Virus record (IMG/VR): IMGVR_UViG_3300031949_000037
Location: 1-61,396 of that record
Source: a virus
Lineage: Duplodnaviria; Caudoviricetes
Direction: 5' to 3' (one strand)
DNA length: 61,396 nucleotides
In this document: positions 1,454-26,390 of the stretch, piece by piece
How the letters are laid out: every line of letters starts with the position of its first letter
Numbering within the stretch: position 1 is the first letter of the stretch
Program-made: the position numbers and the translations under genes
Notes under the pieces: generated by a model
What the model was told of the DNA's origin: nothing
What the model saw: only the letters and a program-made list of their open reading frames with translations
The model's database searches: none

Positions 1454-2422
1454 ATGACCCAGGAGCACGCCCTAGTGGCCGTCGGCACGCGGCCACTCCT
1501 GGCTACTAAGGCCAACGTTGAAGTCATGGAACGCTTCATCCAGGTGATGGACCCGAACGCCGACGCTAAGCTCAGGTGGTCGCTGGCCGTCGTGGCCGTA
1601 CGGCTAGGCCTGCACCCTCTTAACAATGAGGTGATGCTGTACGAGGGGCAGGTCTTCATCACGATCCACGGCCGCCGCCGGCTAGCGGAGCGCAACGGCG
1701 ACCTAGCCGCCATCCAGCCCGACATCGTCACGGACGACGCCCGGCGCAAGGCCATGGGGGCCACGAGTAGGGGCGACATCGTCGGCATGTGCTACGTCTA
1801 CCGGCGTAGCGATGAGCGCCCTACCATCCAGTACGGCCTGGTCCGGGCTAATGAGCGCTGGCCTAGCGAGAACGAGATGGTCAAGCTGGGCGTGACGCAG
1901 GAGGAGGTGCAGAAGCTCAGAAACAACGACGATCCCGATGGCCTGTTCGCCATCATCAAGAATCCCCGCGCTAAGGTCCGGCCCATCATCCTCCAGCCGC
2001 ACATAATGGCGATGAAGCGGGCCGAGGCGCGGGCCCTGGACTCTCTGGCCGGCGTACCGCTGCCGACCTTCGACCCCGAGATGGGGGCCCAGGTCACCAA
2101 CGGCGTCCTACCGGCCTTCATGCTCCAGGAGGACCCCGATCCCGCAGCGCCGACGGCTACGGCGGAGCCAACGCCAACGGCGCCGTCTTCGCCCCCGCCC
2201 GTCCAAGCGTCGGCACCGCCCACGCCACCCCCGGCGTCGATGCCCGAGCCTACGACATCGCCGTCGACCAGGCCGCCGGCGCCGCCCACGTCGAGGCCCC
2301 CGGCACAGTCTACGTCCTCGCGACGCCCCGCTCAGGGAGCGCTACCCGTACCGTGTGCTAACAATCCACAGATCTGCGGCTGCCCAAGCCATATCGCCGA
2401 GCGAGCCGCCCGGCGGGCATAA
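1454..2422 (+). CDS. recT: RecT/Bet-like single-strand annealing protein with P/T-rich tail
   Basis: LGLHPL..VFITIHGRRRLAERNG and PHIMAMKRAEARAL motifs; AAGGAGG RBS. Confidence 0.75.
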   Translation: MTQEHALVAVGTRPLLATKANVEVMERFIQVMDPNADAKLRWSLAVVAVRLGLHPLNNEVMLYEGQVFITIHGRRRLAERNGDLAAIQPDIVTDDARRKAMGATSRGDIVGMCYVYRRSDERPTIQYGLVRANERWPSENEMVKLGVTQEEVQKLRNNDDPDGLFAIIKNPRAKVRPIILQPHIMAMKRAEARALDSLAGVPLPTFDPEMGAQVTNGVLPAFMLQEDPDPAAPTATAEPTPTAPSSPPPVQASAPPTPPPASMPEPTTSPSTRPPAPPTSRPPAQSTSSRRPAQGALPVPCANNPQICGCPSHIAERAARRA

Positions 2423-3098: not shown

Positions 3099-3648
3099 GG
3101 AGGGCCAGGACCACGAGGCGGCGGAGCCGCCGCTGGCCGAGGCTACCGAGCCGGCCCTAGACGTCCAGACGTCCGGCGATGGTGCTACGCCGGCGCCCGA
3201 GCCGGCCGGGGCCGAGCCTGAGGACAAGGCCACGCCAGCCCCGGAGCAAAACCTGACGCTGGAGGCCAGGGGCCGCGTAGTCGCGTGGGCCCCCAAGTCT
3301 ACCGAGACCGGGCCGGTCTGCCGCATTACCTTCGAGACCGCCGACATCAACGGTCGGGATCTCGAGCTCTTGTGGTCCGCCCAAGCGTTCCTCGCCGCCA
3401 TGACGCTAACCTTCGAGGGCCGGTCGCAGCGCATCCCCTTCCCCATGGCGGTCGGCCCTAGCCCGGCGTCAGAGGCCGCCGCCGAAGAGCCCTGCACGGA
3501 CCAGGAGCAGGCCGAGGCCGATGCCCTAGCCGGCGGCGCCATGGCAGAGGCGGAGGGCCAGGCGGAGGGCTTAGCCCAGGCCGAAGAGGCCGTGGGCGGG
3601 GCCGAGCCGCCATGGGCCGAAGGCGGCCAGCCCGAGGGCGGTGACTAA
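3037..3648 (+). CDS. Acidic hypothetical protein
   Basis: AAGGAG RBS; E/A/P-rich termini around a folded-looking core. Confidence 0.65.
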   Translation: MPRQYTRTRRKLALEEAAPPEEGQDHEAAEPPLAEATEPALDVQTSGDGATPAPEPAGAEPEDKATPAPEQNLTLEARGRVVAWAPKSTETGPVCRITFETADINGRDLELLWSAQAFLAAMTLTFEGRSQRIPFPMAVGPSPASEAAAEEPCTDQEQAEADALAGGAMAEAEGQAEGLAQAEEAVGGAEPPWAEGGQPEGGD

Positions 3649-3671
3649 CCCGCTTAAGCCCTTTCCCATCC

Positions 3672-3733
3672 TTGACACAGAGTGGCCCCTGGGTATGATC
3701 CAGGGGCCGCTACTTACTAGCCGCTACGGCTAG
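3672..3733 (+). promoter_or_regulatory. sigma70 promoter with downstream operator
   Basis: TTGACA-16 nt-TATGAT; perfect CTAGCCG-CTA-CGGCTAG at 3717-3733. Confidence 0.75.
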
Positions 3734-3737
3734 CGTT

Positions 3738-4355
3738 ATGTTATCTATCGAAAGGATGGGCGCCCCCGCCATGCCGAGCCGCCGCTTACCCCCCCGTGTC
3801 CTCGACCTCCAGGCTCCGCAGTACCCGCTACCGGATGCGCCCGCCCCGCGCCCGGCCTCGCGTAGGCGCGCGCGGCCGGGCGATCTCGCGGTGGTGGTGG
3901 GGGGTGGTGGTGGTGGTGATCTCTCTCGATCTACCGATCCATTAGTAGACCGAGACCCCACCACCACCACCGCGCACGGGCTCGCGCGCGCGGTGGCGCG
4001 CTACTTACGGGTGCGCCTGGGCACGGCCCTGGCGGCAGAGATGGTCGAAGAGTATGGGGCCATCCCGATACTCCGCGCCCTACCCCTCGTCATGAGACCG
4101 CATTGGGTAGAGGAGCCGGTTGCCCAGCTTACCTACGCGGAAATCAAGGCGTGGCGAGCGGCCGGTGCTAAGGGCCAGTTACGCCGGCCCGGCAGGGAGC
4201 GAATCCTGTGGGAGCCGGCACCTGGGCTACGGAGTCCTGGCGGCGTGCTACGGCGGAAACTCGAGGCTGGCCGGTTGACGGCCGCTAGCCGTAGCGGCTA
4301 TAGTGACCAGGCCGGCGGCGCTACGGAGCCCCGCCAGCAAGCGATAGGAGGCTAG
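3738..4355 (+). CDS. Hypothetical protein, possibly a replication-initiator-like remnant; start uncertain
   Basis: ORF after a promoter; DRDPTTTTAHGLARA resembles phage replisome-organizer linkers; internal inverted repeat. Confidence 0.4.
   Translation: MLSIERMGAPAMPSRRLPPRVLDLQAPQYPLPDAPAPRPASRRRARPGDLAVVVGGGGGGDLSRSTDPLVDRDPTTTTAHGLARAVARYLRVRLGTALAAEMVEEYGAIPILRALPLVMRPHWVEEPVAQLTYAEIKAWRAAGAKGQLRRPGRERILWEPAPGLRSPGGVLRRKLEAGRLTAASRSGYSDQAGGATEPRQQAIGG
4275..4304 (+). promoter_or_regulatory. sigma70 promoter with embedded operator
   Basis: TTGACG-18 nt-TATAGT with CTAGCCG-TAG-CGGCTA. Confidence 0.8.
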
Positions 4356-6167: not shown

Positions 6168-6373
6168 TACCCAAGCCAGCGGGCTACGTCTGGGCCGAGG
6201 GCAAAATGCGCGGCGGGGTACAGACCATAACGCGCCATCGGGCCGGCTGCGGCGTGGTCTGGCGGGCTCGCTCTAGCCTATACAGTACGGTTTTCCTGCA
6301 TGCCAAACGGCCGGGCAATCTGCCCTGGTACGTCTTCGTAGACCATCGCTGTGTAAGGGGGGCGAAGGGATGA
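6164..6373 (+). CDS. Hypothetical protein
   Basis: ATGA coupling at both ends. Confidence 0.5.
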   Translation: MIPKPAGYVWAEGKMRGGVQTITRHRAGCGVVWRARSSLYSTVFLHAKRPGNLPWYVFVDHRCVRGAKG

Positions 6374-8145
6374 TACCGCTACGAATAGGCCTAAGTAACT
6401 TCCTGAGCTATGGTGACGCCGACGTCGACCTGGCCGGCCTCTCCATGGTGGCCCTGGCGGGCGAGAACGGCGCGGGCAAGTCGGCCCTGGCGGTCGATGC
6501 CCTAACCTGGGCCCTGTGGGGCCTAAGCCGTGCCCGCTCCGACGACGACCTGGTCCGCGCCGGTGCCAGCGAGTGCATGGTGACGGTAGACATCGCCGTG
6601 GATCGCGGAACCTATCGCGTTAGCCGGCGCCGGCACCTGGGGCCGGGCGGCCGCGCCGGTACTAGCGCCCTTACCCTTGAGGCCCTGGAGGGCGGCCGGG
6701 CCGTGAAGCTCACGGCCGAGACGATCCGAGAGACCCAGGAGCGCATCGAGGGCGTCCTCGGCCTTGACGGCAAGACCTTCATCAACACCGCCTGTCTAGT
6801 ACAGGGCCGGGCTGACGAGTTCGCCCGCGCCGGCCCCAAGGACCGTAAGGACCTTCTGGCCGAGATCTTGGGCATCCGGTCGTGGCAGGAGTGGGCGGGC
6901 ATGGCCCGCGATAGGGGGCATCGAGCGGCTGCGGCTGCGGCCGCCGAGCAATCGTCCGCCGAGGCCTTCCGCCAGGCCCTAGCGGGCGCTGGCGGCCTAC
7001 GGGCCCAGCTACAGGAGGTGGAGGCCCGCCTAGACGCCCAGGGCCGAGAGGTATCCGACCTAGCGGGCCGCCTGGAGGGCGGCCGTGCCCTAGCCCAGGC
7101 GCAGTCTGAGACCCTTAGGATGAGGGGTAGCCTTCGGGCCGACCTCGCCGCAGTGGAGGGCCAGGCACGGGCAGGCCGCATGCAGATCTCCCGGCTTACC
7201 GAGCAGCTAGCGGCCATCGCCACCACTAAGCCCGGTAGCCGCCCCCTTCAGTGTCCTACCTGTGGCCAGGACATCGTAGACACAAAGGCCGCCGAGCGGG
7301 TAGAGGAGTGGGCGCGGCGCCAGGCCGATCTTCGCGCCCGGCTGGAGGCCGATCTCCTGACCGTTGATGGCGCCACGGACGACGCTGTGATCCGGGCCGG
7401 CGAGATACAAGAGCGCCTCAGCGTCGTCGAGGCCGAGGTCGATGGCGTGGGCGACATGCAGGCGGCCCTAAGGGCGGCCGAGAGTAACCATCAGACCGCC
7501 GCGGCGCTCCTGGCTAGCTGGCAGGCCGACGCGGCCGGTATCCGGGGCCGGCTCCAGCAGTTAGCGGCGCTAGAGCGGGATCTGGAGCGGGCTGAAGGGC
7601 GCGCCGCCGAGGCTTCGGCGCGGGCCGCCGATATGATCCTGCTCGACTCCATCCTGGGGCCTAATGGGATTCAAGCCATGCTCATAGACGCGGCGATCCC
7701 CGAGATCGTAGACGAGGCCAACCGGCTCCTGGGCATCCTAACCGCCGGCACGACGACCATTGATCTGAGGACCCAGCGCGCGGGGAAGACAACGGGCCGC
7801 GACATCGAGACGCTGGACCTCTTGATCAGCGATGGGCTGGGCATCCGGCCTTACGAGCTCTACTCAGGCGGCGAGCGCTTCCGCGTCGACTTCGCTACCA
7901 GGATCGCGCTATCCAGGCTCTTGGCTAGGAGGGCATCGGCGCCGTGCAGGACCCTTGTAATCGACGAGGGCTTCGGGAGCCAGGACGGCCGGGGCAGGGA
8001 GGCCCTGATGGAGTGCCTCTCGATGATAGCGGCCGAGTTTGGCCTGATCCTCGTTATCAGCCACGTCGACGACCTGAGGGAAGCCTTGCCCTGCACGATC
8101 CTCGTCGAGAAGGGGCCCAATGGTTCGCGGGCCATCCTACGCTAA
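6370..8145 (+). CDS. sbcC: SbcC/Rad50 SMC-like ATPase
   Basis: Walker A GENGAGKS, Zn-hook CPTC, signature YSGGE, Walker B LVIDEGFGSQD, VISH. Confidence 0.95.
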   Translation: MIPLRIGLSNFLSYGDADVDLAGLSMVALAGENGAGKSALAVDALTWALWGLSRARSDDDLVRAGASECMVTVDIAVDRGTYRVSRRRHLGPGGRAGTSALTLEALEGGRAVKLTAETIRETQERIEGVLGLDGKTFINTACLVQGRADEFARAGPKDRKDLLAEILGIRSWQEWAGMARDRGHRAAAAAAAEQSSAEAFRQALAGAGGLRAQLQEVEARLDAQGREVSDLAGRLEGGRALAQAQSETLRMRGSLRADLAAVEGQARAGRMQISRLTEQLAAIATTKPGSRPLQCPTCGQDIVDTKAAERVEEWARRQADLRARLEADLLTVDGATDDAVIRAGEIQERLSVVEAEVDGVGDMQAALRAAESNHQTAAALLASWQADAAGIRGRLQQLAALERDLERAEGRAAEASARAADMILLDSILGPNGIQAMLIDAAIPEIVDEANRLLGILTAGTTTIDLRTQRAGKTTGRDIETLDLLISDGLGIRPYELYSGGERFRVDFATRIALSRLLARRASAPCRTLVIDEGFGSQDGRGREALMECLSMIAAEFGLILVISHVDDLREALPCTILVEKGPNGSRAILR

Positions 8146-15838: not shown

Positions 15839-16281
15839 AACGGTGCCAGCTAGCCCGTGAGGGCACGGGCCGGATCGTAGGCCTGGTCAACGGCTGCTTT
15901 GACCTGCTACATCCCGGCCATGTCCTCTTCCTCCAGGAGGCCGCCCAACACTGCGATAGCCTGGTCGTGGCCATCGACACCGACGCCCAGGTCCGCCATG
16001 CTAAGGCCGATGGGCGCCCCGTACGCTCCTGGTACGAGCGCGCCTTCCTGGTCAAGGCCCTTGCCTGCGTCTTCGGCGTTACCCCCATTGACCCCGTGCA
16101 GCCCCTAACGGCCGTGCTGGAGGCCCTTCGCCCCGACCTCTATATGTACCGGCCGGGCTCGCCGCCTACCGAGCTGGAGGTAGCGCGTGGCCTGGGCCTG
16201 GGCATGCTGGAGCTAGGGCGCCATGGGGCTTGGAGCACGACAGAGGAGATCATCCGATGCGAAAGAAGGCGACTCCGGTAG
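15796..16281 (+). CDS. Cytidylyltransferase-fold nucleotidyltransferase, HldE/RfaE domain II-like
   Basis: NGCFDLLHPGH, LVVAIDTD..K..RP...ER, C-terminal STTEEI. Confidence 0.85.
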   Translation: MVGFWTPEEPADLLERCQLAREGTGRIVGLVNGCFDLLHPGHVLFLQEAAQHCDSLVVAIDTDAQVRHAKADGRPVRSWYERAFLVKALACVFGVTPIDPVQPLTAVLEALRPDLYMYRPGSPPTELEVARGLGLGMLELGRHGAWSTTEEIIRCERRRLR

Positions 16282-16823
16282 CCCGCGACCCGCTGCAAAT
16301 CCGCTACGCGGACCCGCGCACCCTGAAGCTGAACGAGGACAACCCCAGGTGGATGCCCGACGATGAAATGGCCTCCCTGAAGCGGTCGCTCCAGACCTGG
16401 GGCTTCGTCGATCCCATCATCGTACGGCGCGAGAACGGCGAGGTGATCGCTGGCCACCAGCGGATCGCGGCCGCCATCGCAGTAGGGCTGGCCCAGGTGC
16501 CAGTGATAGACCTAGACGTGACCGCCCTCGACGCCGCTCTGCTTAACCAGGCCCTTAACCGGATCATGGGCCGCTGGGATGAAACCAAGCTGCCGCTCGT
16601 GCAGGAGCAGCTACGGCTCGAGGGCGCCGACCTGAGCCTGACCGGCTTCACGTCGGCCGAGCTCGACCTGTACGCCGGCACCGTCGCCGGCGCCCCTGTC
16701 CACTCGGCCGCCCGTAAGAACGACAACTTTGCGGCCTTCAACCGTGGTACCGGCGAGTACACGCGCCTAGAGCTAGGCGAGATCCAGATTGCCCTACCGG
16801 CCCATGTCTACCATCGGGGCTAA
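16257..16823 (+). CDS. ParB/Srx N-terminal domain protein
   Basis: NPR..LKRSLQTWGFVDPIIV..VIAGHQR. Confidence 0.85.
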   Translation: MRKKATPVARDPLQIRYADPRTLKLNEDNPRWMPDDEMASLKRSLQTWGFVDPIIVRRENGEVIAGHQRIAAAIAVGLAQVPVIDLDVTALDAALLNQALNRIMGRWDETKLPLVQEQLRLEGADLSLTGFTSAELDLYAGTVAGAPVHSAARKNDNFAAFNRGTGEYTRLELGEIQIALPAHVYHRG

Positions 16824-18238: not shown

Positions 18239-20293
18239 ATGGCGCGGAAGTCTACCCTTACCCGTCTACCCGCGCACCTCATCGCCGAGCGCCGCCAGCA
18301 CGTCCGGCGCCTAGACCTAATCGGCTCTAGCGTCCCTACCATCGTCGCTACTCTCCAGCACCAGGCGCCCCAACTGATCGAAGCCCAGGCCGACCCTGCA
18401 CAGACGGTCCGTGACGACCTCGACGCCATCCGGGGCCTAGCGGTAGCGGAGCTAACCGACCTGGGCTCCGCCGCGCTGGGGGCCCGCGCCGTCGTCGACT
18501 ACATTGGGCTTAAGCGCTTGATCCTTAACAGCGCGATTGCCATGGCGGAGTCGCCGGCCGTCAGACCCAGGGATAGGGCCAAGTTCCTCCAGGTGGCCAA
18601 CGTGGCGGCCGACGACATCGCTCGGGCCAGAGGCGTACCCGTAGACCGGCCGGCCTTCAACATCAACTTCCAGCAGCAGCTACTAGCCCTGGGCCTACCG
18701 CCGGCCATGGTCGACATGCTGACGGCTGGCCCCGCCCGCGCCGGGCCGGCGCCTCTCCTTCTGCCCGCCGGCACCGGTGGCGGCCTCGTCGACGCGCTGA
18801 CCTTCGCCGTTTCGCCCGACTTCTGCGACCTCGGCTCCATCATGGAGTCCTACCCGATGCAGGAGCGGGTCCTGCGAGAGTTCATGTCGCCCCGGTCGCC
18901 CTACCGCGTCCTGGTCCTGGTCTGCGGCATGCGGTCCGGCAAGGGCGTGGTGGGCAGCATCGTGGCCTGGTACGCCGCCTATCAGCTCCTCTCCCTAGCC
19001 GACCCCCAACACTACTTCGGCCTGGCGCCCGGCCAGGAAATCCAGATCGTGACGATGGCCACATCGCAGGACCAGGCGAAGCACAACGTCTTCAAACACA
19101 TCGTCGACCGCCTGGAGAACGGGGGCCCATGGTTCCAGGCCCTACGCGACCAGGCCGAGGTCGTGAGCCTCGAGATCCGCCTACCCAAGAACATCCTGAT
19201 CCGCTGCGGCCACTCCAAGGCGTCTACCCAGGTGGGCTCTACCTCCTACGTGGTGATCCTCGACGAGCTGGCCCGGATGAAGGACACCGAAGGGCGCGAT
19301 AACGCCGACGAGGTCTACGACAAGATGGGTGCGACCACGGCCACCTTCCTCGAGGAGGGCAAGGTCCTGGTCTTGACGTCGCCCGAATGGGAAGGCGATA
19401 AGAGCATGCGGCTACTGGACGAGGCCACGGCCGACGACGATAGCGGCCGGCCCCTACATCCCGACATGCTGGGCATCCAGCTCGCTACGTGGGAAGCCAA
19501 CCTTAACTTGACCGAGGACGGGCTGGCCGAGGCCTTCCACCGCGACGCTAACCCCATGGCCTTCTGGCGTGACTTCGGGGCCCGCCCGCCCCTGGCCGCT
19601 GAGGGCTACTACCCCGATCCCGGCCGCTGGGACCGGCAGGTCGACCCCGACCTGCGGCACCCCTACGACGAGAACGATCAGCTATACGACTGGTGGGTGC
19701 CTTGCTGCGATGGCCGGCGCTTCGTCCATGTCGACCTAGGCGCCAAGCGCGACGCCGCCGGCCTGGCGATGGCCCATGCGCCCGTGCCGGGCTGCCCCTA
19801 CTACAAGACGGTCCTCCGGGATGGCCAGATAGTCGAAAACCCGCGCGCCCGCGCGGTCGTGACCGACGTTATCCACCGCCTCGTGCCCGGCCGCAAGCGG
19901 GAGGTGAAGGGCGAGATCTCGTTCGAGGCCGTGCGCCAGATGATCCGCAACTGGCAGGCGCGGGGCTTCAACGTCAAGGGCGGCCTGGTCTCCTACGACG
20001 GCTGGCAGAGCCTCGACAGCCGGCAAATCTTCAAGCGCGAGGGATACAAGGTCGCGGAGTTCTCCCTAGACCGCAACACCGAGGGCCATGATACCCTCCA
20101 GGAGCTTCTAAACACGGACCGCCTCGCCTACTACGGGCACCCCGTCTTGCTGAACGAGGCTAAGCACCTGATGCTCCTGCACGGCAAGAAGGTGGATCAC
20201 CCCAAGGGCGGCTCTAAGGACGTAGCGGACGCCGTCGCCGGCGCCGTCTATCATGCCCTGAAGCGGGGCGGCCGAGTTAGGTTCGTGGGCTAG
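18239..20293 (+). CDS. terL: Terminase large subunit with ~180-aa N-terminal extension
   Basis: GMRSGK Walker A, VILDE Walker B, HVDLG and DHPKGGSKDVADA nuclease motifs. Confidence 0.92.
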   Translation: MARKSTLTRLPAHLIAERRQHVRRLDLIGSSVPTIVATLQHQAPQLIEAQADPAQTVRDDLDAIRGLAVAELTDLGSAALGARAVVDYIGLKRLILNSAIAMAESPAVRPRDRAKFLQVANVAADDIARARGVPVDRPAFNINFQQQLLALGLPPAMVDMLTAGPARAGPAPLLLPAGTGGGLVDALTFAVSPDFCDLGSIMESYPMQERVLREFMSPRSPYRVLVLVCGMRSGKGVVGSIVAWYAAYQLLSLADPQHYFGLAPGQEIQIVTMATSQDQAKHNVFKHIVDRLENGGPWFQALRDQAEVVSLEIRLPKNILIRCGHSKASTQVGSTSYVVILDELARMKDTEGRDNADEVYDKMGATTATFLEEGKVLVLTSPEWEGDKSMRLLDEATADDDSGRPLHPDMLGIQLATWEANLNLTEDGLAEAFHRDANPMAFWRDFGARPPLAAEGYYPDPGRWDRQVDPDLRHPYDENDQLYDWWVPCCDGRRFVHVDLGAKRDAAGLAMAHAPVPGCPYYKTVLRDGQIVENPRARAVVTDVIHRLVPGRKREVKGEISFEAVRQMIRNWQARGFNVKGGLVSYDGWQSLDSRQIFKREGYKVAEFSLDRNTEGHDTLQELLNTDRLAYYGHPVLLNEAKHLMLLHGKKVDHPKGGSKDVADAVAGAVYHALKRGGRVRFVG

Positions 20294-20296
20294 GGC

Positions 20297-20326
20297 TTGA
20301 CCGACGCTAGCCGCTACGGCTATTAT
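20297..20326 (+). promoter_or_regulatory. sigma70 promoter with embedded operator, upstream of the hexamer array and RAMP gene
   Basis: TTGACC-18 nt-TATTAT with CTAGCCG-CTA-CGGCTA. Confidence 0.85.
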
Positions 20327-20430
20327 GGCGGAGCCGCGCCAGCGCCGGGGGCTGGCGGGCTAGCGAAAGGGGCCGCCCCATGACCATCAGTTCTCTAGCG
20401 CTGGCCATCCCGCCGGCCTAGTGCTCGCAT

Positions 20431-21241
20431 CGACCTCGGCAACGCCTAGGGCGATGCTACCGTCGACGTTCCAGTCTACGCCTAGGCCGCCATCGGCTTC
20501 GCCGGCGCTAGAGCCATCGCCCGCGGCAACGGCTTCGCCGTCGCTGTCGACCACGACGCGGCCGGCGTCTATGCCGACGCCGGCGCCATCGCTGTCGCTA
20601 ACGCCGCCGCCCACGTCCCGGTCTTCGCCATCGGTAACGCCGCCGGCACTGCTGGAGGCGTCGCCTACGCTCTCGGCCTTGTTGCCGGCCGCGTCAACGC
20701 TGCCGCCATCGCTGCCGGCGCCGACCTCGCTGACGCCATCGCCTTCGCTCTCGGCCTCGCTACCGCTCACGCCGCTGCTGGCGCTGCCGATCCCGCTACT
20801 GCTCCCGGCGGAGCCGTCGCCATCGGCCCCGTCACGCCGTAGACCCGGACTGCGCCTATGCCCTCGTTACCGTCGCCGTCCGCTGCTGACGCCTTCGCCC
20901 CCGGCACCGCCAACGGCACCGGCTTCGGCCCTGCCAGCGTTACCGTCGCCGCCCCGCCACACTGCTCCCGCCTTAGTCTGCGCCGGCCACTTCGTCACCG
21001 TCCGCGGCTGCCCCTTCGCCTTCGTCAACGCCATCGCTGACGCTGCCGGCCTAGCTGCCGACCTCGTCGACGCCCTCGCTACTGCCGAAGCCTGCGCCAA
21101 TGCCCGCGCCAACGCCCTCGCCACCGCCGAAGCTGGCGCCGACGGCTTCGCCGTCGGCCTCGCCAAAGCCGCCCCGCCGGCCCCGGCAACGGCCTCGCTC
21201 CCGCCATCGTCAACGCCCCGCCATCGTCAACGCCCCGCCAT
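20431..21241 (+). repeat. Degenerate hexamer array (C)G-N-Y-N-N, ~130 units; candidate non-coding guide RNA array
   Basis: 57 consecutive in-register units at 20488-20829 all have G at position 2 and a pyrimidine at position 4; positions 5-6 vary; several register slips are not multiples of 3. Confidence 0.85.
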
Positions 21242-21280
21242 AGTGTCCGCCGGCCATGCGGCCCGGCAGAGAGGAAAGCC

Positions 21281-21922
21281 ATGCCGATCAGGATCACGGT
21301 CCGCGCCCACTTCGAGAGGGGCTACATAGCCGACCCCTACTGGCCCGAGCGGGAGAAGGTGATCAACATCCTGAAGGAGTCGGGGGCCAACCGGGTCCGG
21401 TCTCAGGACCGCCGGGCCAAGGCCCTAGACGACTACCTGAGGGCCCGCAGCATGACGCTTGAGGATCTGCACAGCCTGGAGGCGCTTGCAGAACGGCCGT
21501 TCTATACGCTCGACGGGCGTATCATCATCCCGGCCCATCAGGTCCATGGCGCCCTAGCCAATGCTGCGGCGCTCTGCTCTTCTTCCATACGGATCGCCCG
21601 CCAGGAGCAGATCAGGACCGTGCTCCAGAGCGGCGATTGGCTCACGGACAAGGGCAAGGAAGACGGCACGTGGGAGCGGTTCGTGGTGGTCAAGAGCGGG
21701 ACCGGTAAGACGCTGACCAACCAGCGGGCCCTACGCGCTAACCCCTACATCGAGGACTTCGACGCCACGGGTACGCTGACGACGCTCATGGAGAAGGAGC
21801 ACCTGAAGAAGCTCGAGGACTTCGTTAAGTGGACGGGCCAGGAGATCGGGCTGGGCGCCTCCCGCAAGATGGGCTGGGGCCGGTTCGACGTTATCGGCTT
21901 CGAGCTCGAGGCCGCTGCATGA
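21281..21922 (+). CDS. Stand-alone RAMP-superfamily (Cas7/Csm3-like) protein
   Basis: N-terminal beta strand, IIIPAHQVHGAL (cf. IPGSSLKGAL), C-terminal Gly-rich loop GLGASRKMGWGRF. Confidence 0.75.
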   Translation: MPIRITVRAHFERGYIADPYWPEREKVINILKESGANRVRSQDRRAKALDDYLRARSMTLEDLHSLEALAERPFYTLDGRIIIPAHQVHGALANAAALCSSSIRIARQEQIRTVLQSGDWLTDKGKEDGTWERFVVVKSGTGKTLTNQRALRANPYIEDFDATGTLTTLMEKEHLKKLEDFVKWTGQEIGLGASRKMGWGRFDVIGFELEAAA

Positions 21923-22341
21923 GCGAGGATGCACCGGGAGCCGTGAACCTACGCGATCTGCCGCCTACGCCGGAGCACGACAAGTTCCTCAAGGTTCGTA
22001 GTGGGCCGCTCGGTGAACACCTCAGTGGGTTCTACGATTATCTGGCCGAGCTGAGCATTCACCTGATGGTGTGGGCTGAGAGTGACGAAGAGGCTGATTG
22101 CGATGGTGGCGTGCTGAACGCGATCTGCCTGGGGGACAGCCGGTGCCCAGCCTGCCACGGTTCGGGCAGAGTTACCCGGCATTTCGAGGGCTACGTATCC
22201 GCCGCCAAGACGCCCGCAGAGTTGATCGCAGGTTACCTCGGTATCGACCCCAAGGCATTCAATGACGAGACCGAGGCAGTCTACCAAGCCGTCAGCAGAC
22301 AGGCCCGCGAGGCCGTGCGGGAGGCTGAGGGGGAAGCATGA
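21919..22341 (+). CDS. Hypothetical protein with CxxCxGxG motif
   Basis: ATGA overlap with the RAMP gene; CPACHGSG. Confidence 0.65.
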   Translation: MSEDAPGAVNLRDLPPTPEHDKFLKVRSGPLGEHLSGFYDYLAELSIHLMVWAESDEEADCDGGVLNAICLGDSRCPACHGSGRVTRHFEGYVSAAKTPAELIAGYLGIDPKAFNDETEAVYQAVSRQAREAVREAEGEA

Positions 22342-22664
22342 GCCCCACGGTCCGGGCCCGGCTCGAGTGGCACCACTTCTACGCCCATGTAGACCTGCCC
22401 AAGGGGGAGCTGCCGCCTAGCATCGTGCTGCCGCTGGAGACCATCATGGGCGAGCCGCAAGTCGACGAAGCGGGCTTCATCATCGAAGTCGACAGAGAGG
22501 CCGAGCCGCTGCTAGCGCCAGACGAGGGGTGGGAGTTCCGCCTACAACCGACTTGCGACTGTACGCTACGCTACGTAGCGGTAGAGCCCCCCTGGCAGGC
22601 CCAGATCAGGAACGCGATCCGCCGGAACGGCTACCGCGCGAAGGAGGCGCCATGCCCGCCCTAA
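22338..22664 (+). CDS. Hypothetical protein
   Basis: ATGA overlap. Confidence 0.55.
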   Translation: MSPTVRARLEWHHFYAHVDLPKGELPPSIVLPLETIMGEPQVDEAGFIIEVDREAEPLLAPDEGWEFRLQPTCDCTLRYVAVEPPWQAQIRNAIRRNGYRAKEAPCPP

Positions 22665-23209
22665 GGTCTACGCTGCTCCTGGCGCTGGTCGTGGCCGCCG
22701 TAGGCGTAGCGGTAGCCACGGCCGGCGCCGGCGCCCAGGGGCCGCCACCTAGGCCCCTGAGGATATGCCGATGGTACCCGCACCTGCGGGTCTGCCGGCC
22801 CCCTACGCTCTCGCCGTCGCCCACCTCTACGCCATCGGCGACGCCCTCGGTAACGCTGACGCCAACGATGCCGCCCACGTCAACGTCCTCGCCGCCGCCG
22901 CCGCCAACGTTGACGACCTCGCCATCGTCGACGGCGCCGCCTACGTCGACGCCAACGCCGCAGCCTACGCCAACGCCGGGGCCGGCCGGCCCCCTACAGG
23001 GAGACCTCAACGGCGACTGCGTAGTCGACCTGGTCGACTGGCAGATGATCTACCCCCGCTATGGGTGCGTCTTCGGGCTCCTCTGCTATCGCCCCATGTA
23101 CGACCTGGAGCCGCCCGGCGGCGACGAGGACATCGACATATGCGACCTCCAATACGTCTACGGCCGCCTGGGCAGCACGTGCGATCACCCGATCCCGGCC
23201 GGTCAGTAG
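22652..23209 (+). CDS. Exported protein: signal peptide, P/T linker, dockerin-like Ca-binding domain
   Basis: AAGGAGG RBS; GDLNGDCVVDLVD..DLEPPGGDEDIDICDL. Confidence 0.8.
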   Translation: MPALRSTLLLALVVAAVGVAVATAGAGAQGPPPRPLRICRWYPHLRVCRPPTLSPSPTSTPSATPSVTLTPTMPPTSTSSPPPPPTLTTSPSSTAPPTSTPTPQPTPTPGPAGPLQGDLNGDCVVDLVDWQMIYPRYGCVFGLLCYRPMYDLEPPGGDEDIDICDLQYVYGRLGSTCDHPIPAGQ

Positions 23210-23211
23210 TC

Positions 23212-23241
23212 TTGACAGGCCCTAGCCGAGGCGGCTAGTCT
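23212..23241 (+). promoter_or_regulatory. sigma70 promoter with embedded operator
   Basis: TTGACA-18 nt-TAGTCT with CTAGCCG-AGG-CGGCTAG. Confidence 0.85.
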
Positions 23242-23367
23242 ACACGCATGGCGGCCGGCGGCTACCCGACAGCAACCGGGTTGGGGGCGGGGAGGGCATC
23301 GCACCCTATGGCCAACCGGCCGCCGCTCTTTATCCCCGCTACCTAGCCCCGCCGGGGGCGACCTATC

Positions 23368-23817
23368 ATGCCGAACCATAGCCGGCTAGAGATTCTGGAG
23401 GGCGCGGCCGAGCTCCGAGACAGGGTAGCGGGCATCGTGCTAGCCTACCGTGGGAAGGGTGCCCGCTTGGCGGCCATCGCTACCGCTCTGGGTTACGAGA
23501 CCTGGGGCCGGGGGGATCGGGGGATGGCGCCGGCGGACCGCGAGCGCATCATGCGAATCCTTAAGGGCCTGGAGAGGGACCACCTGCTCTACCGGGACGC
23601 CAAGGGCCTATACCGGCCCTTCGATTGGCGCGAGTACCTGGCGGCTCTTAAGGGGCGCCACGACCACTACCGTCTACGGGCCCGCTTCCTCTACCGGGCC
23701 GCCCAGCGGTCGGAGCGGCTTGCCGCCCGCGCCTGGCGGGCCGTCATGGCCGAGCTAGAGCGCATAGCCGGGGAGCACCCCGAGGTCGACATCGAGAAGC
23801 TGAGGGACGAGACATGA
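23368..23817 (+). CDS. Putative winged-helix DNA-binding protein
   Basis: LAAIATALG..RILKGLERDHLLYRD..GLY pattern. Confidence 0.55.
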   Translation: MPNHSRLEILEGAAELRDRVAGIVLAYRGKGARLAAIATALGYETWGRGDRGMAPADRERIMRILKGLERDHLLYRDAKGLYRPFDWREYLAALKGRHDHYRLRARFLYRAAQRSERLAARAWRAVMAELERIAGEHPEVDIEKLRDET

Positions 23818-24304: not shown

Positions 24305-25828
24305 ATGTTACCCGAACCCCTTTACGACCGCGACGCCATCCGCCTCTACCATGGCGACTGCCGGGCGCTGCTGGCCGCTCTTCCGGGCCACAGCGTGAAC
24401 GCGGTCGTGACCAGCCCGCCCTTTTGGGGGCTGCGGATGTACGACTGCCCCCCTAGCGTTTGGGGCGGAGATCCCGACTGCCGCCACGAGGAAGGGTGGG
24501 TAATGATCGCCCGCCGCTACCAACGGGCTAGCGTAGGTGAGCGCTCGACCTTAGAAGGCGGGAGCCAGAGACCCCAGGGCGACGATACGCCGGTGATCAT
24601 CCCCGAGACGGCTAGCTGCCCGCTCTGCCGCGCCTGGCGCGGCTGGTACGGCTCCGAGCCGACGGTCCCCATGTACATCGAGCACACGGGCGAGGTCCTG
24701 AGGGCCTTGCGCCGGGTCCTGCGCCCCGATGGGGCCTTGTGGCTAGACCTCGACGACAGCCGCGGCGCCCATGGGTCGCGGTTCCCTGACAGGCGGCGGA
24801 AGGAGCTTGCGGTCACGCCTGGCCGGCGCGCCGCCGGCATTCCTGATATGTCGGTCTGCCTGATCCCGCTGGAGGTGGCGCGGGCCGCCCGCGCCGAGGG
24901 CTGGATCGTGCGGTCCGTGATCATCATTCCCACGTGGGTACCCGAATCAGCCCACGACCGCCCTACGGACGCCTACCGCGTGCTCCTGATGCTATCGCCG
25001 GCCCATGGCATCACGTTCTACTGGAACGAACAGACCCGCCGGCATGGCCCGACGCGGCCTAGCAATCAAGCCGGCCTGGAGGGCGAAGACTGGCGGTGGG
25101 AGAAGGATGCCAGGGGCCGGCCGGTCCGGCGGTCCTACTGGCACGCCGAACGCTACTGGTACGACGGCTATGTGGGTAGGGTACCTAGCACCGGCCGCCA
25201 GCGGTCGGAGAGGATCGGCGGCGACCATGATAGGCCAAGCCATAGCAGGGGCGGGCCGATTAGTCCCTCGACCTACCGTAACCTGGGCAACGTGTGGGAC
25301 GACATCGGGCCGGCAGCCTACCCCGGCGAGCACTTCGCCGTAATGCCCATGGCAGAGGCCGAGAGGTGCATCGGGCTCTCGGTACCTCCTGAGGCATGCC
25401 CGAAGTGCGGCCGCGGGCGGGTAAGGATCGTCGGTAGCCGCAGCCCCCGTCACGAGGGCACAGATGGCCGCGGGCAGCCTGACGGACCGGGTAGACTGGC
25501 CGCAAAGCGCGACCTCCTACGGGCTAGCGGCGGAGATCCTGATAACCCCTGGCCGGATGCAGAAACCCTCGGCTGGACGGATTGCGACTGCGGCGCCGCC
25601 TATGAGCCGGGCGTGGTCCTGGACCCTTTCGCGGGAACGGGTACCACGCTGCTGGCGGCGCAGAACCTCGGCCGGCGCGCGATGGGCTTCGAGCTCTCGG
25701 AGGACTACTGCCGCCAGGCCGTTACGCGCCTGACCGTAGGCGACGCCGGCGTCCGCCGCATGGTGGAGGCGGGCCGCGCCGGCGCCCAGCAACCGTCGCT
25801 CTTCGAGGAGGCTGGCCATGGCCGGTAG
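24305..25828 (+). CDS. Beta-class DNA amino-methyltransferase (N4C-like)
   Basis: VVTSPPFWGLR catalytic motif precedes VLDPFAGTGTT SAM motif. Confidence 0.92.
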   Translation: MLPEPLYDRDAIRLYHGDCRALLAALPGHSVNAVVTSPPFWGLRMYDCPPSVWGGDPDCRHEEGWVMIARRYQRASVGERSTLEGGSQRPQGDDTPVIIPETASCPLCRAWRGWYGSEPTVPMYIEHTGEVLRALRRVLRPDGALWLDLDDSRGAHGSRFPDRRRKELAVTPGRRAAGIPDMSVCLIPLEVARAARAEGWIVRSVIIIPTWVPESAHDRPTDAYRVLLMLSPAHGITFYWNEQTRRHGPTRPSNQAGLEGEDWRWEKDARGRPVRRSYWHAERYWYDGYVGRVPSTGRQRSERIGGDHDRPSHSRGGPISPSTYRNLGNVWDDIGPAAYPGEHFAVMPMAEAERCIGLSVPPEACPKCGRGRVRIVGSRSPRHEGTDGRGQPDGPGRLAAKRDLLRASGGDPDNPWPDAETLGWTDCDCGAAYEPGVVLDPFAGTGTTLLAAQNLGRRAMGFELSEDYCRQAVTRLTVGDAGVRRMVEAGRAGAQQPSLFEEAGHGR

Positions 25829-26390
25829 AGGCTATATGCCGCGCGCCCAAACGCAGGAGTGGGAGACGCCGCGCGATCTCTTCGACCGGCTGTGGGAGGA
25901 GTTCGGCCCCTTCGAGTGCGATCCTTGCTGCCGCACGGTTCACTATACGGCCCAGCGCGTTCTCGGCGCCGGCGGCCTCGTCTATGTCCCGCCCGGCGGG
26001 CTCTTCGGCCAGCGCGACGTGGCGCCCGGCGTCGCGGAGGACGGCCTCCTAGGGCCTTGGCGGGGGGCCGTCTATATGAACCCGCCCTACGGGGAGGTCC
26101 TGGCCGCCTGGGTCACGAAGGCCGTGCGCGAGGTCGAGGCCGGCAACGCCCGCCGAGTGGTGGGCCTCGTCCCGGCCCGGACCGATACCCGCTGGTGGCA
26201 GCGCTACGTGCTGGAGGCCGCTTCCTGTACGCCGCAAGTGGTTCCCGAGCCGCTTCTAGCGGGCGGCTGGGAGATCGCGTGCCATTCGGCCCTAAGGGTC
26301 CTGCGGTTCCTGCCGGGCCGGCTGAGGTTCGGGGGCGCGGCCAACTCGGCCACCTTCCCCTCGGTGATCGTTGTGTGGGAAATGCCATGA
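25818..26390 (+). CDS. Phage N6-adenine DNA methyltransferase (phage Dam family)
   Basis: EWETP, VYMNPPYG, LVPARTDTRWW, GRLRF. Confidence 0.9.
   Translation: MAGRGYMPRAQTQEWETPRDLFDRLWEEFGPFECDPCCRTVHYTAQRVLGAGGLVYVPPGGLFGQRDVAPGVAEDGLLGPWRGAVYMNPPYGEVLAAWVTKAVREVEAGNARRVVGLVPARTDTRWWQRYVLEAASCTPQVVPEPLLAGGWEIACHSALRVLRFLPGRLRFGGAANSATFPSVIVVWEMP

Follow-up and report, generated by a model that had tools for sequence, protein, structure and literature searches.

The stretch of DNA analysed here (the window) is the complete record of a soil phage and has a length of 61,396 nt. It contains a long array of hexanucleotide repeats, which is preceded by a promoter and a leader and followed on the same strand by the gene for a small RAMP-like protein (Table 1). 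The two small ORFs downstream of this gene gave no family match and are not conserved with the system. In this phage, the main array lies directly after the large terminase gene.

Table 1. Features of the array locus and related elements of the window
Feature	Position	Strand	Basis or remark
Third array, ~29 units, 96 bits	2145..2321	+	3' end of RecT-like gene 1454-2422
Sigma-70-type promoter, TTGACC-18 nt-TATTAT	20297..20326	+	10/12 consensus matches
Palindromic operator-like spacer element, TAGCCG-CTA-CGGCTA	20308..20322	.	copy count
Leader, ~100 nt, from promoter to array, without ATG-led gene	20327..20427	+	
Main array, ~134 CG-N-Y-NN hexamer units in blocks, 6 phase slips	20428..21234	+	HMM, autocorrelation
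Block of 12 successive NN dinucleotides in common with phage L001, 'fixed' bases differing	20957..21040	+	comparison
Perfect 17-nt tandem duplication, 2.5 copies, 3' end of main array	21200..21241	+	repeat finding
Solo Vipr-like RAMP gene, 213 aa, RBS GAGAGGAAAG upstream	21281..21922	+	model, Foldseek, hhalign
Two small ORFs, 140 and 108 aa, function unassigned by family searches	21919..22664	+	same transcription unit as RAMP gene
Second array, 29 clean hexamer units, 0 slips, 130 bits	22802..22978	+	within ORF 22529-23209

The promoter is the sole promoter-like site between 20200 and 23400 (shuffled sequences give a mean of 0.2), and a search of the same interval for terminator-like sites found none. 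The palindrome TAGCCG-N3-CGGCTA in its spacer is present in the window in eight perfect and three one-mismatch copies, against 0.32 expected, and the majority of these are flanked by a −35 element, TTGAC, on one side and a −10 element, TAnnnT, on the other. The original prediction, made from the DNA letters alone, of an operator-controlled promoter upstream of the array agrees with this arrangement. The structured leader that it also proposed is not supported, as the leader folds no more stably than its shuffles (z 0.29). We obtained no alignment between the leader and that of the closest relative, L001, and Rfam returned just two sub-threshold chance matches for 19800–23600.

Arrays were called with a cyclic six-state HMM. 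The main array spans 807 nt of same-strand hexamers with a score of 473 bits, close to the ~810 nt predicted, and the base autocorrelation of 20297–21280 reaches 0.474 at lag 6 and 0.471 at lag 12, compared with 0.374 for lag 3 and 0.258 for lag 5. Over the 59 in-phase units of 20488–20841, the composition is C.80, G.96, C.61/G.20 and C.65/T.32, followed by two free positions (NN). The same HMM called no array on either strand of eight first-order Markov resamples of the window and none in 50 kb of phage SUSP1. Like the leader, the array RNA folds no better than shuffled sequences (z −0.27). Tandem Repeats Finder detected no CRISPR-like repeats in the window and PADLOC no Cas family among its 61 ORFs, as had been predicted; the phage thus carries a minimal viral locus with neither a CRISPR array nor other cas genes.

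The phage carries three arrays, and some arrays lie inside real ORFs; neither point had been foreseen. Pfam and PHROG searches gave no match for the ORF that contains the second array, and an initial impression of a dockerin-like C-terminus was dropped because Pfam gave no support. The third array is translated as the Pro/Thr/Ser-rich tail of a gene that matches Pfam RecT below the cut-off (E 8e-4); at the orthologous position, L003 has a clear RecT-like gene (phrog_2449, E 1e-42).

The RAMP gene starts 46 nt past the end of the main array and 39 nt past the last perfect 17-nt repeat. It is a real gene with 96 homologues. The AF2 model of its product (pLDDT 96.8, pTM 0.88) gave 175 Foldseek matches in the PDB at E ≤ 1e-3, headed by Cas7-type RAMPs: type VII Cas7 (9j9e, 4.4e-8) and Csm3 (7uzw, 4.9e-8), with Cmr4 and gRAMP also represented. 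These Cas7-type matches range from E 4e-8 to 4e-6 with a TM of about 0.5. Since the fold library ends on 2026-04-08 and a Vipr entry is absent from the matches, this ranking cannot weigh Vipr against Cas7. A structure search of BFVD yielded three viral proteins (E 1.7e-11 to 3.7e-7), one of which is named as a RAMP protein. The model and the sequence motif together display an RRM core, a glycine-rich loop and a thumb. Across the family, there is almost no variation in the C-terminal motif G-x-G-A-S-R-K-M-G-W-G-R-F, and the long-hairpin residues N147-Q148-R149 vary hardly or not at all. We predict with high confidence that the protein adopts a Cas7-type RAMP fold, as the original prediction of a solo RAMP/Cas7-like gene had it and as the Foldseek search proposed with it now indicates. 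Sequence families capture the protein less well. The match to Pfam RAMPs (PF03787; 15.6 bits, E 0.023) stays below the gathering cut-off of 22.1 bits, only 7 of 92 family members match at E ≤ 0.1 (best 0.005, all below the cut-off), and NCBIfam, PHROGs and PADLOC contain no family for it.

A phage-borne solo RAMP next to short tandem repeats is reminiscent of VIPR. According to the available text of its description, VIPR pairs a solo RAMP with 5-nt GGY/NN repeats that specify a gapped DNA target, one base being skipped per NN during recognition; these properties, named in the original prediction, are as published (10.64898/2026.04.26.720920). The same text gives the repeat RNAs (vrRNAs) 9–16 repeats and a conserved structured 3' tail, typically places an accessory vap gene in the locus and reports codon-matched targets for phage SUSP1 (10.64898/2026.04.26.720920). 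Further traits of VIPR are a Vipr protein with RRM core, glycine-rich loop and thumb, small loci found chiefly in viruses, and a vrRNA that is expressed and co-purifies with Vipr. The type II Vipr of SUSP1 binds double-stranded DNA, as stated in the accessible parts of both VIPR papers (10.64898/2026.04.26.720920, 10.64898/2026.04.26.720927).

We compared the protein families by profile. A profile of 92 family members aligns with 36 SUSP1-type Viprs with an hhalign probability of 97.3% (E 1.9e-11) over 153 columns that include the thumb and the G-loop; against the single SUSP1 sequence, the probability is 42.6% (E 2.6e-4). The SUSP1 ORF used here corresponds to PDB 36pp, 'SUSP1 Vipr protein', which a PDB sequence search with the 213-aa protein finds weakly (36pp_D, E 0.72). 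Judged by these profiles, our family and that of SUSP1 Vipr are remotely homologous. In the alignment, D177 and W178 of SUSP1 Vipr, which hold G1 and G2, are replaced by Ala and Ser.

Cas7-family RAMPs bind crRNA in a register of six bases per subunit, with 5+1 pairing. The protein studied here shares the fold, the glycine-rich loop and the thumb-like hairpin with the Cas7 backbones (Csm3, Cmr4, type VII Cas7, gRAMP), and the length of its repeat equals their register. One might therefore consider an RNA-guided system with an RNA target, as for type III and type VII Cas7 backbones, all the more because the best Foldseek matches are all RNA-target binders. However, only two of the six bases per unit vary, so that 5+1 pairing cannot apply and the guide would be non-contiguous. 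The fold ranking is blind to Vipr, and the profile homology is to a protein described, in the text available, as a double-stranded DNA binder (10.64898/2026.04.26.720920, 10.64898/2026.04.26.720927). We regard an RNA target as improbable. The locus also differs from class 1 CRISPR systems in having no repeat-spacer array, Cas5, Cas6, large subunit or adaptation genes.

Homologues of the gene were examined for period-6 arrays in their surroundings, as had been suggested. A + strand array is found within 150 nt of the gene in 22 of 26 related loci (upstream in 13, downstream in 5, on both sides in 4), and in 17 loci an array abuts the RAMP gene's own start codon. L018, where a homing-endonuclease ORF splits the gene and an array precedes the first part, joins the paired loci; the remaining unpaired ones are one degraded array and two partial matches. 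Nineteen of the related loci come from viral contigs. All-against-all ORF clustering of 27 loci found no neighbour family in more than four of them, antisense shadows of the gene aside. Array sizes range from 10 to 205 units; some loci have 50–205, in some cases without a break. Punctuation into blocks, of roughly 9–20 units, is limited to L026, L015, L017 and L001, and in L026 and L015 the phase slips by +1 every few units. The 3' flanks of the arrays have no common motif and run straight into the next gene's RBS. Strand scores are far higher for the + strand except in L009, L018 and L020, where the CGGC/CGAC units give similar scores for either strand.

These comparisons make a DNA-level role of the arrays (iterons, a packaging site by the terminase gene or DNA sites of the RAMP-like protein) most unlikely. 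The proximity to the large terminase gene in the window would suit a packaging site, but neighbours differ in the other loci and no terminase family is conserved beside the gene. In addition, the arrays keep the strand of the gene wherever it can be told (all but L009, L018 and L020), and RAMP folds are RNA binders.

Taken over the window and 24 loci (2007 units), the consensus is C-G-x-C-N-N, with C.89 at position 1, G.96 at position 2 and C.93 at position 4; positions 5 and 6 are nearly random (<0.1 bit each). The NN bases are AT-rich, with a mean GC of 0.41 in genomes of 56–73% GC. The G-loop reads GWGRF in 21 sources (20 loci and the window), 20 of which have callable arrays (that of L014 is degraded), and in all 20 of these, position 3 is mostly C or T. 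Four loci in which position 3 is G or A have GYGRF, GYGRG or GCGRF instead. Repeat position 3 and the G-loop change together by clade, with only two to three independent changes and L023 as an exception. The original (C)GNY-NN reading was correct in its period and its fixed bases, whereas position 3 is not free but clade-specific.

Could the arrays mainly encode low-complexity protein ([S/T/P/A]-Pro or Ala-X), with the nearness to the RAMP gene incidental? At least two of the three + frames are stop-free by construction, and the RecT-linked arrays of the window and L003 are indeed in-frame parts of real genes and form [S/T/P/A]-Pro linkers there; five of six unit positions also match the needs of such a linker. 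In L003, moreover, an ORF passes through the upstream array and ends in an ATGA overlap with the RAMP start. Nevertheless, coding alone does not explain the arrays. Real genes here have a GC3 of 0.72–0.91, whereas in the X-Pro frame the two wobble sites have opposite compositions, one with G.96 and the other with a GC of.43 (A.35). The Ala-X frame never uses NNG or NNA codons and hence never K, E, Q, M or W. The L017 array contains 15–17 stops in each + frame, the arrays of L008, L011, L012 and L026 have no ORF context, and the +1 slips of L026 and L015 recur every few units. The main array has stops in two of three + frames, and ORF 20421–21329, which spans it, has no Pfam match. As the gene and the array are also paired in 22 of 26 loci whatever the neighbours, we give the coding explanation very little credence. 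Recoding of TAG was rejected, since ordinary genes are read through in the normal way, and NN as codon positions 1–2 of high-GC genes was ruled out (r −0.01 against the phage's genes).

The arrays turn over rapidly between relatives, and this fast turnover is confined to NN. The flanks of L002 and L004 are 96.5% identical (119 mismatches in 3381 positions, 3.5%). Mismatch frequencies at the six repeat positions of their arrays are.05,.04,.11,.02,.28 and.33, in addition to indels of whole units, so that NN differ by ~30% and fixed positions by 2–11%. Between the window and L001, with 84% identical proteins, the arrays cannot be aligned except for one block (Table 1). A period-6 scan of IMG/VR with this shared block found L001's contig only, which served as positive control.

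This pattern bears on the possibility that the array RNA is a scaffold or cis-regulator without targeting, the protein covering the CG-x-Y repeats in the mRNA of its operon. Coating of the 5' UTR, the intergenic junctions and the RecT tail would then control translation, stability or packaging, and NN would be unconstrained. Several observations are consistent with such a role: the arrays fill 5' UTR or intergenic space up to the next RBS without a tail or terminator, in 17 loci one of them adjoins the start codon of the RAMP gene itself, and NN are of nearly even composition with a lean towards AT, as might be expected of relaxed sites. But NN differ ~8x more than the flanks, and in whole blocks, which goes beyond relaxed constraint, and the window and L001 have kept the 12-NN block even though its fixed bases have drifted. 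Furthermore, the homologous SUSP1 system targets DNA via NN, according to the text available (10.64898/2026.04.26.720920). A scaffold is unlikely in our view, though it deserves more weight than an RNA target.

The absence of a target in gapped searches, which required exact seeds and covered few guides, also fits a scaffold. At target periods 2–6, the NN strings of all window arrays matched the window and the 26 loci no better than strings with shuffled unit order, so the search under different gap models suggested originally gave no target above chance. Exact scans of IMG/VR with a 10-unit guide of array 2 (period 3) and an 11-unit block conserved with L001 (periods 3, 2 and 4) gave 0 matches, as did a metagenome scan at period 3. 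Shorter seeds gave at least 119 and 26 matches, and among the matches listed, extension into neighbouring units was at chance level (best 18/40 and 13/30).

Taken together, we consider that the locus probably represents a phage-encoded system of the VIPR kind, in an undescribed hexanucleotide class. The phage promoter would give rise to one transcript with the leader, the long CG-(C/N)-Y-NN array and the Vipr-like RAMP gene, with no terminator between them, and further arrays would be transcribed elsewhere from the same strand. On the basis of its homology to Cas7 and SUSP1 Vipr, the RAMP protein may assemble on the array RNA with one protomer per six bases. The fixed C-G-x-Y would be held by the G-loop, the RRM face and the thumb hairpin, leaving two free bases per unit exposed. 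The exposed dinucleotide string would read a gapped DNA sequence of a competing mobile element or the host and would repress it.

The likeness to VIPR is extensive. Both consist of a phage-borne, solo, small RAMP of ~200 aa without CRISPR array or cas genes, both have same-strand tandem repeats flanking the gene, in which two hypervariable bases come after a fixed part, and profile comparison shows the protein families to be homologous. The ~9–20-unit blocks of some lineages are close to the 9–16 repeats given for VIPR in the text available. In contrast to VIPR as described there, the repeat is a 6-nt CG-x-Y-NN rather than a 5-nt GGY-NN, arrays reach into ORFs and can be far longer (50–205 units, some unbroken) than the vrRNAs, a conserved 3' tail and a conserved vap gene are both lacking, the G-loop has other residues in place of those that read G1 and G2, and NN are AT-rich with no codon-matched target found. 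The legend of fig. S17 gives a pentanucleotide motif across VIPR types and cites further 5-mers as alternatives (10.64898/2026.04.26.720920). The available Evo-PIN text describes GAC/NN, CAC/NN and other 5-mer arrays beside Vipr-like folds and, outside 5, 18 and 60–79 nt, periods of 10, 8 and 7; it does not mention a period-6 array with a Vipr-like neighbour (10.64898/2026.10.21.760802). Those arrays resemble ours in lying beside Vipr-like folds and differ in being 5-mers throughout, and their divergent fixed motifs indicate that a different protein can go with a different fixed part. The accessible text of the VIPR papers contains no period-6 type, although a figure or table could hold one. 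Since the published repeats are pentanucleotides, as far as the accessible text goes, we read the six-base system as a hexanucleotide VIPR variant. Fold, profile homology and period-6 arrays beside the homologues thus bear out the predicted 6-nt-period relative of VIPR; the relatedness stands, but the term VIPR variant suits the locus better than 'new RNA-guided system'. On both points at which the prediction could fail in these data, the outcome was in its favour: the fold is that of a RAMP, and the homologues have arrays.

A more far-reaching reading, which we offer tentatively and with some doubt, is that of a hexanucleotide VIPR branch with a register between 5-nt VIPR and 6-nt Cas7. It would be free of tail and accessory gene and would carry tens to hundreds of guide units in operon mRNAs, with guides writable inside ORFs and NN renewed. 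The fixed N-CG-CC-N would let any guide sit in an ORF as a harmless [S/T/P/A]-Pro linker, and block-wise NN replacement between near-identical phages would represent active or recombinational guide renewal.

VIPR was first described in 2026, and all repeats reported in the accessible text are pentamers (10.64898/2026.04.26.720920). If our interpretation is true, a Vipr homologue with a six-base RNA register would mean that the filament register can change. Because the G-loop changes together with the repeat, the family would provide a natural comparison for the reading of fixed bases. Neither natural arrays of such length nor an overlap of arrays with coding sequence has been reported for VIPR, as far as the literature text available goes. 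The system would also be relevant to the proposal that a viral RAMP gave rise to the six-base Cas7 backbone, and it would add a second gapped code that could be deciphered and perhaps reprogrammed.

A hexamer array beside the solo RAMP gene, as in the original prediction, is borne out by the autocorrelation of the main array (0.474 at lag 6; lags 3 and 5 give 0.374 and 0.258), by its cyclic HMM score and by the position of the 213-aa gene, which starts 46 nt past the HMM end of the array with an RBS in front. In 59 in-phase units (20488–20841), the bases are C.80, G.96, C.61 or G.20, and C.65 or T.32, followed by two free positions (NN). Eight Markov resamples of the window yielded no arrays with the hexamer HMM, nor did 50 kb of phage SUSP1. 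The ORF containing the second array (22529–23209) has a signal-peptide-like start, reads the array as a Pro/Thr/Ser stretch and ends in a Cys- and Asp-rich C-terminus somewhat reminiscent of a dockerin; it matches nothing in Pfam or PHROGs.

The 213-aa protein has no family in PHROGs, NCBIfam or PADLOC, and Pfam matches its RAMP G-loop weakly (E 0.023). There are 96 homologues (90% clustering), and searching 1.84 billion representatives with the family profile returned 253 proteins at E ≤ 1e-3, of which 152 reach E ≤ 1e-10 and 78 reach E ≤ 1e-30; all named matches are labelled hypothetical. The AlphaFold2 model (92 sequences; pLDDT 96.8, pTM 0.88) has the anticipated RAMP/Cas7-like fold: Foldseek gives 175 PDB matches at E ≤ 1e-3, headed by Cas7-type RAMPs (type VII Cas7, Csm3, Cmr4 and gRAMP), and the structure matches in BFVD are three phage proteins, one carrying a RAMP protein name. 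Public gene calls of homologues P0008, P0065 and P0094 begin within the upstream array and thus carry false N-terminal extensions (Ala-X or Asp/Gly-rich repeats).

We identified the Vipr gene of SUSP1, an Escherichia phage with type II VIPR, as PDB 36pp, and GGTNN arrays are present in the phage sequence. In hhalign, the window family and the SUSP1 Vipr family (191 relatives collected) align over 153 columns including the thumb and G-loop (probability 97.3%, E 1.9e-11), which identifies the 213-aa protein as a remote homologue of Vipr. SUSP1 Vipr residues D177 and W178 read G1 and G2, according to passages of the cryo-EM paper; the window family has A and S at these positions of the alignment, and R179 is retained in both.

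We compared the window with 26 related loci (19 viral and 7 genome), of which L019 and L025 are partial hits. A plus-strand array lies within 150 nt of the gene in 22 of the 26 (13 upstream, 5 downstream and 4 on both sides), so that periodic arrays do flank the homologues and, with the alignment to the Vipr family, support the proposed 6-nt-period relative of VIPR in both kinship and anatomy; RNA-guided targeting is its putative mechanism. In L014, a degraded array follows the stop codon. In L018, the array lies ∼26 nt before the first part of a gene split by a LAGLIDADG ORF, in what looks like an intron or homing-endonuclease insertion. No neighbouring gene family is conserved around the Vipr-like gene across the related loci.

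The 2007 pooled units read C.885, G.956, C.595 or G.203, and C.932, and the last two positions hold less than 0.1 bit each. Position 3 tracks the protein clade: the large clade has C/T, L009 and L018 carry G, and L017 and L020 carry A. The G-loop tryptophan becomes Y or C in the clades with G or A at position 3; this covariation comprises 2–3 independent changes only, with L023 as an exception. Punctuation divides the arrays of L026, L015 and L017 into blocks of roughly 5–20 units, which may be single guides. The NN bases are AT-rich (GC 0.41) and unlike codon positions 1 and 2 of the window phage's genes. Gapped searches found no NN targets at periods 2–6 in the window and the 26 loci, and searches with exact seeds and few guides found none in IMG/VR (periods 2, 3 and 4) or metagenomes (period 3).

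The proteins of the window and L001 are 84% identical, and their arrays are not alignable save for one block, in which 12 successive NN are shared and the fixed bases differ. Between L002 and L004, the flanks have 3.5% mismatches, whereas the arrays mismatch by.05,.04,.11,.02,.28 and.33 at positions 1 to 6. These arrays also differ by insertion or deletion of entire units, and their differences cluster in blocks, most of them at the 5′ ends.

Since the array design leaves at least two of the three plus frames unable to hold stops, open frames carry little meaning. Some arrays are clearly non-coding: that of L017 has 15–17 stops in each plus frame, those of L008, L011, L012 and L026 lack ORF context, and +1 slips occur every few units in L026 and L015. 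The L003 array is in frame behind a RecT domain (phrog_2449, E 1e-42) and reads as [S/T/P/A]-Pro; the third window array has the same position, within a weaker RecT match. The L003 ORF extends into a domain that the window encodes as an ORF of its own (2441–2761). Codon bias as the sole cause of the array bases fits no frame: GC3 of real genes is 0.72–0.91, the X-Pro frame has one wobble site with G.96 and the other with GC.43, and the Ala-X frame never uses NNG or NNA codons. We conclude that the constraint acts on nucleotides, the fixed bases happening to suit a harmless linker.

The window is 100% complete by CheckV (61,396 bases, GC 67.7%). The array promoter is the sole promoter-like site within 20200–23400, where no terminator-like site follows it. 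Its spacer is occupied by the palindrome TAGCCG-CTA-CGGCTA (copy at 20308), and TAGCCG-N3-CGGCTA occurs in the window 11 times (8 copies are perfect, 3 have one mismatch) versus 0.32 expected. Since most copies share a TTGAC...TAnnnT frame, the array operon is a predicted member of a phage-wide promoter/operator set. Often an ATG lies 10–13 nt downstream of the palindrome, and such genes are possibly near-leaderless. The leader, described as structured in the original prediction, folds no more stably than shuffles (z 0.29). The tetranucleotide CTAG is strikingly common by eye in 20290–20520 (promoter, leader and first array units). PADLOC matches suggest that the 591-aa ORF encodes an SMC- or ABC-type ATPase.

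Features of the window and related loci (window coordinates unless a locus is named)
Feature	Position	Strand	Remarks
Main array	20428–21234	+	Hexamers; cyclic HMM 473 bits, 6 phase slips
Second array	22802–22978	+	29 clean units; cyclic HMM
Third array	2145–2321	+	Cyclic HMM
Large-terminase-like gene	18239–20293		Upstream of array promoter; PHROG terminase families, E 1.5e-11
Promoter-like site TTGACC-18-TATTAT	20297–20326	+	Downstream of terminase-like gene
Leader	Between promoter and main array		∼100 nt
TAGCCG-N3-CGGCTA copies (11)	1038, 3718, 4286, 6136, 8985, 13259, 20308, 23223, 24277, 31124, 59455
RecT-like annealing protein genes with hexamer array	1454–2422; L003:384–1538		In-frame Pro/Thr/Ser-rich linker after RecT domain
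Split Vipr-like gene, L018	3195–4582		N-terminal part; 174-aa LAGLIDADG-type-motif ORF 3475–3999; remainder from 4046
Punctuated array	L026:4650–5286		7-nt units CGCCCG+T
Punctuated array	L015:4684–5005		CGTTCG+G
Punctuated array	L017:4629–5863		YGCT units every 41–78 nt; two outliers, 18 and 119
Three DNA methyltransferase-like genes	16230–16820, 24305–25825, 25818–26387		PADLOC MTase_II/oMTase, E 9e-25 to 3e-43
591-aa ORF	6370–8142		PADLOC mad3 (E 1e-18) and LmuB

According to the legend of fig. S17 of the VIPR preprint (bioRxiv 10.64898/2026.04.26.720920), all seven types have pentanucleotide repeats, and passages of the same preprint name NNNGG, YNNNG and NNNNG as alternative motifs; the text of the VIPR supplement mentions neither 'hexanucleotide' nor '6-nt'. 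Passages of the Evo-PIN preprint (bioRxiv 10.64898/2026.10.21.760802) give periods of 5, 18, 60–79, 10, 8 and 7 nt and link no period-6 array to Vipr. The text of the competition preprint likewise uses none of these terms, and a six-base VIPR did not turn up in the text of the wider literature searched. Because the pentamer, the 3′ tail and the vap gene, VIPR features each tested here, are lacking at the window locus, it lies outside every described type: it is VIPR-like, with a six-base unit, and belongs to no VIPR type described so far.
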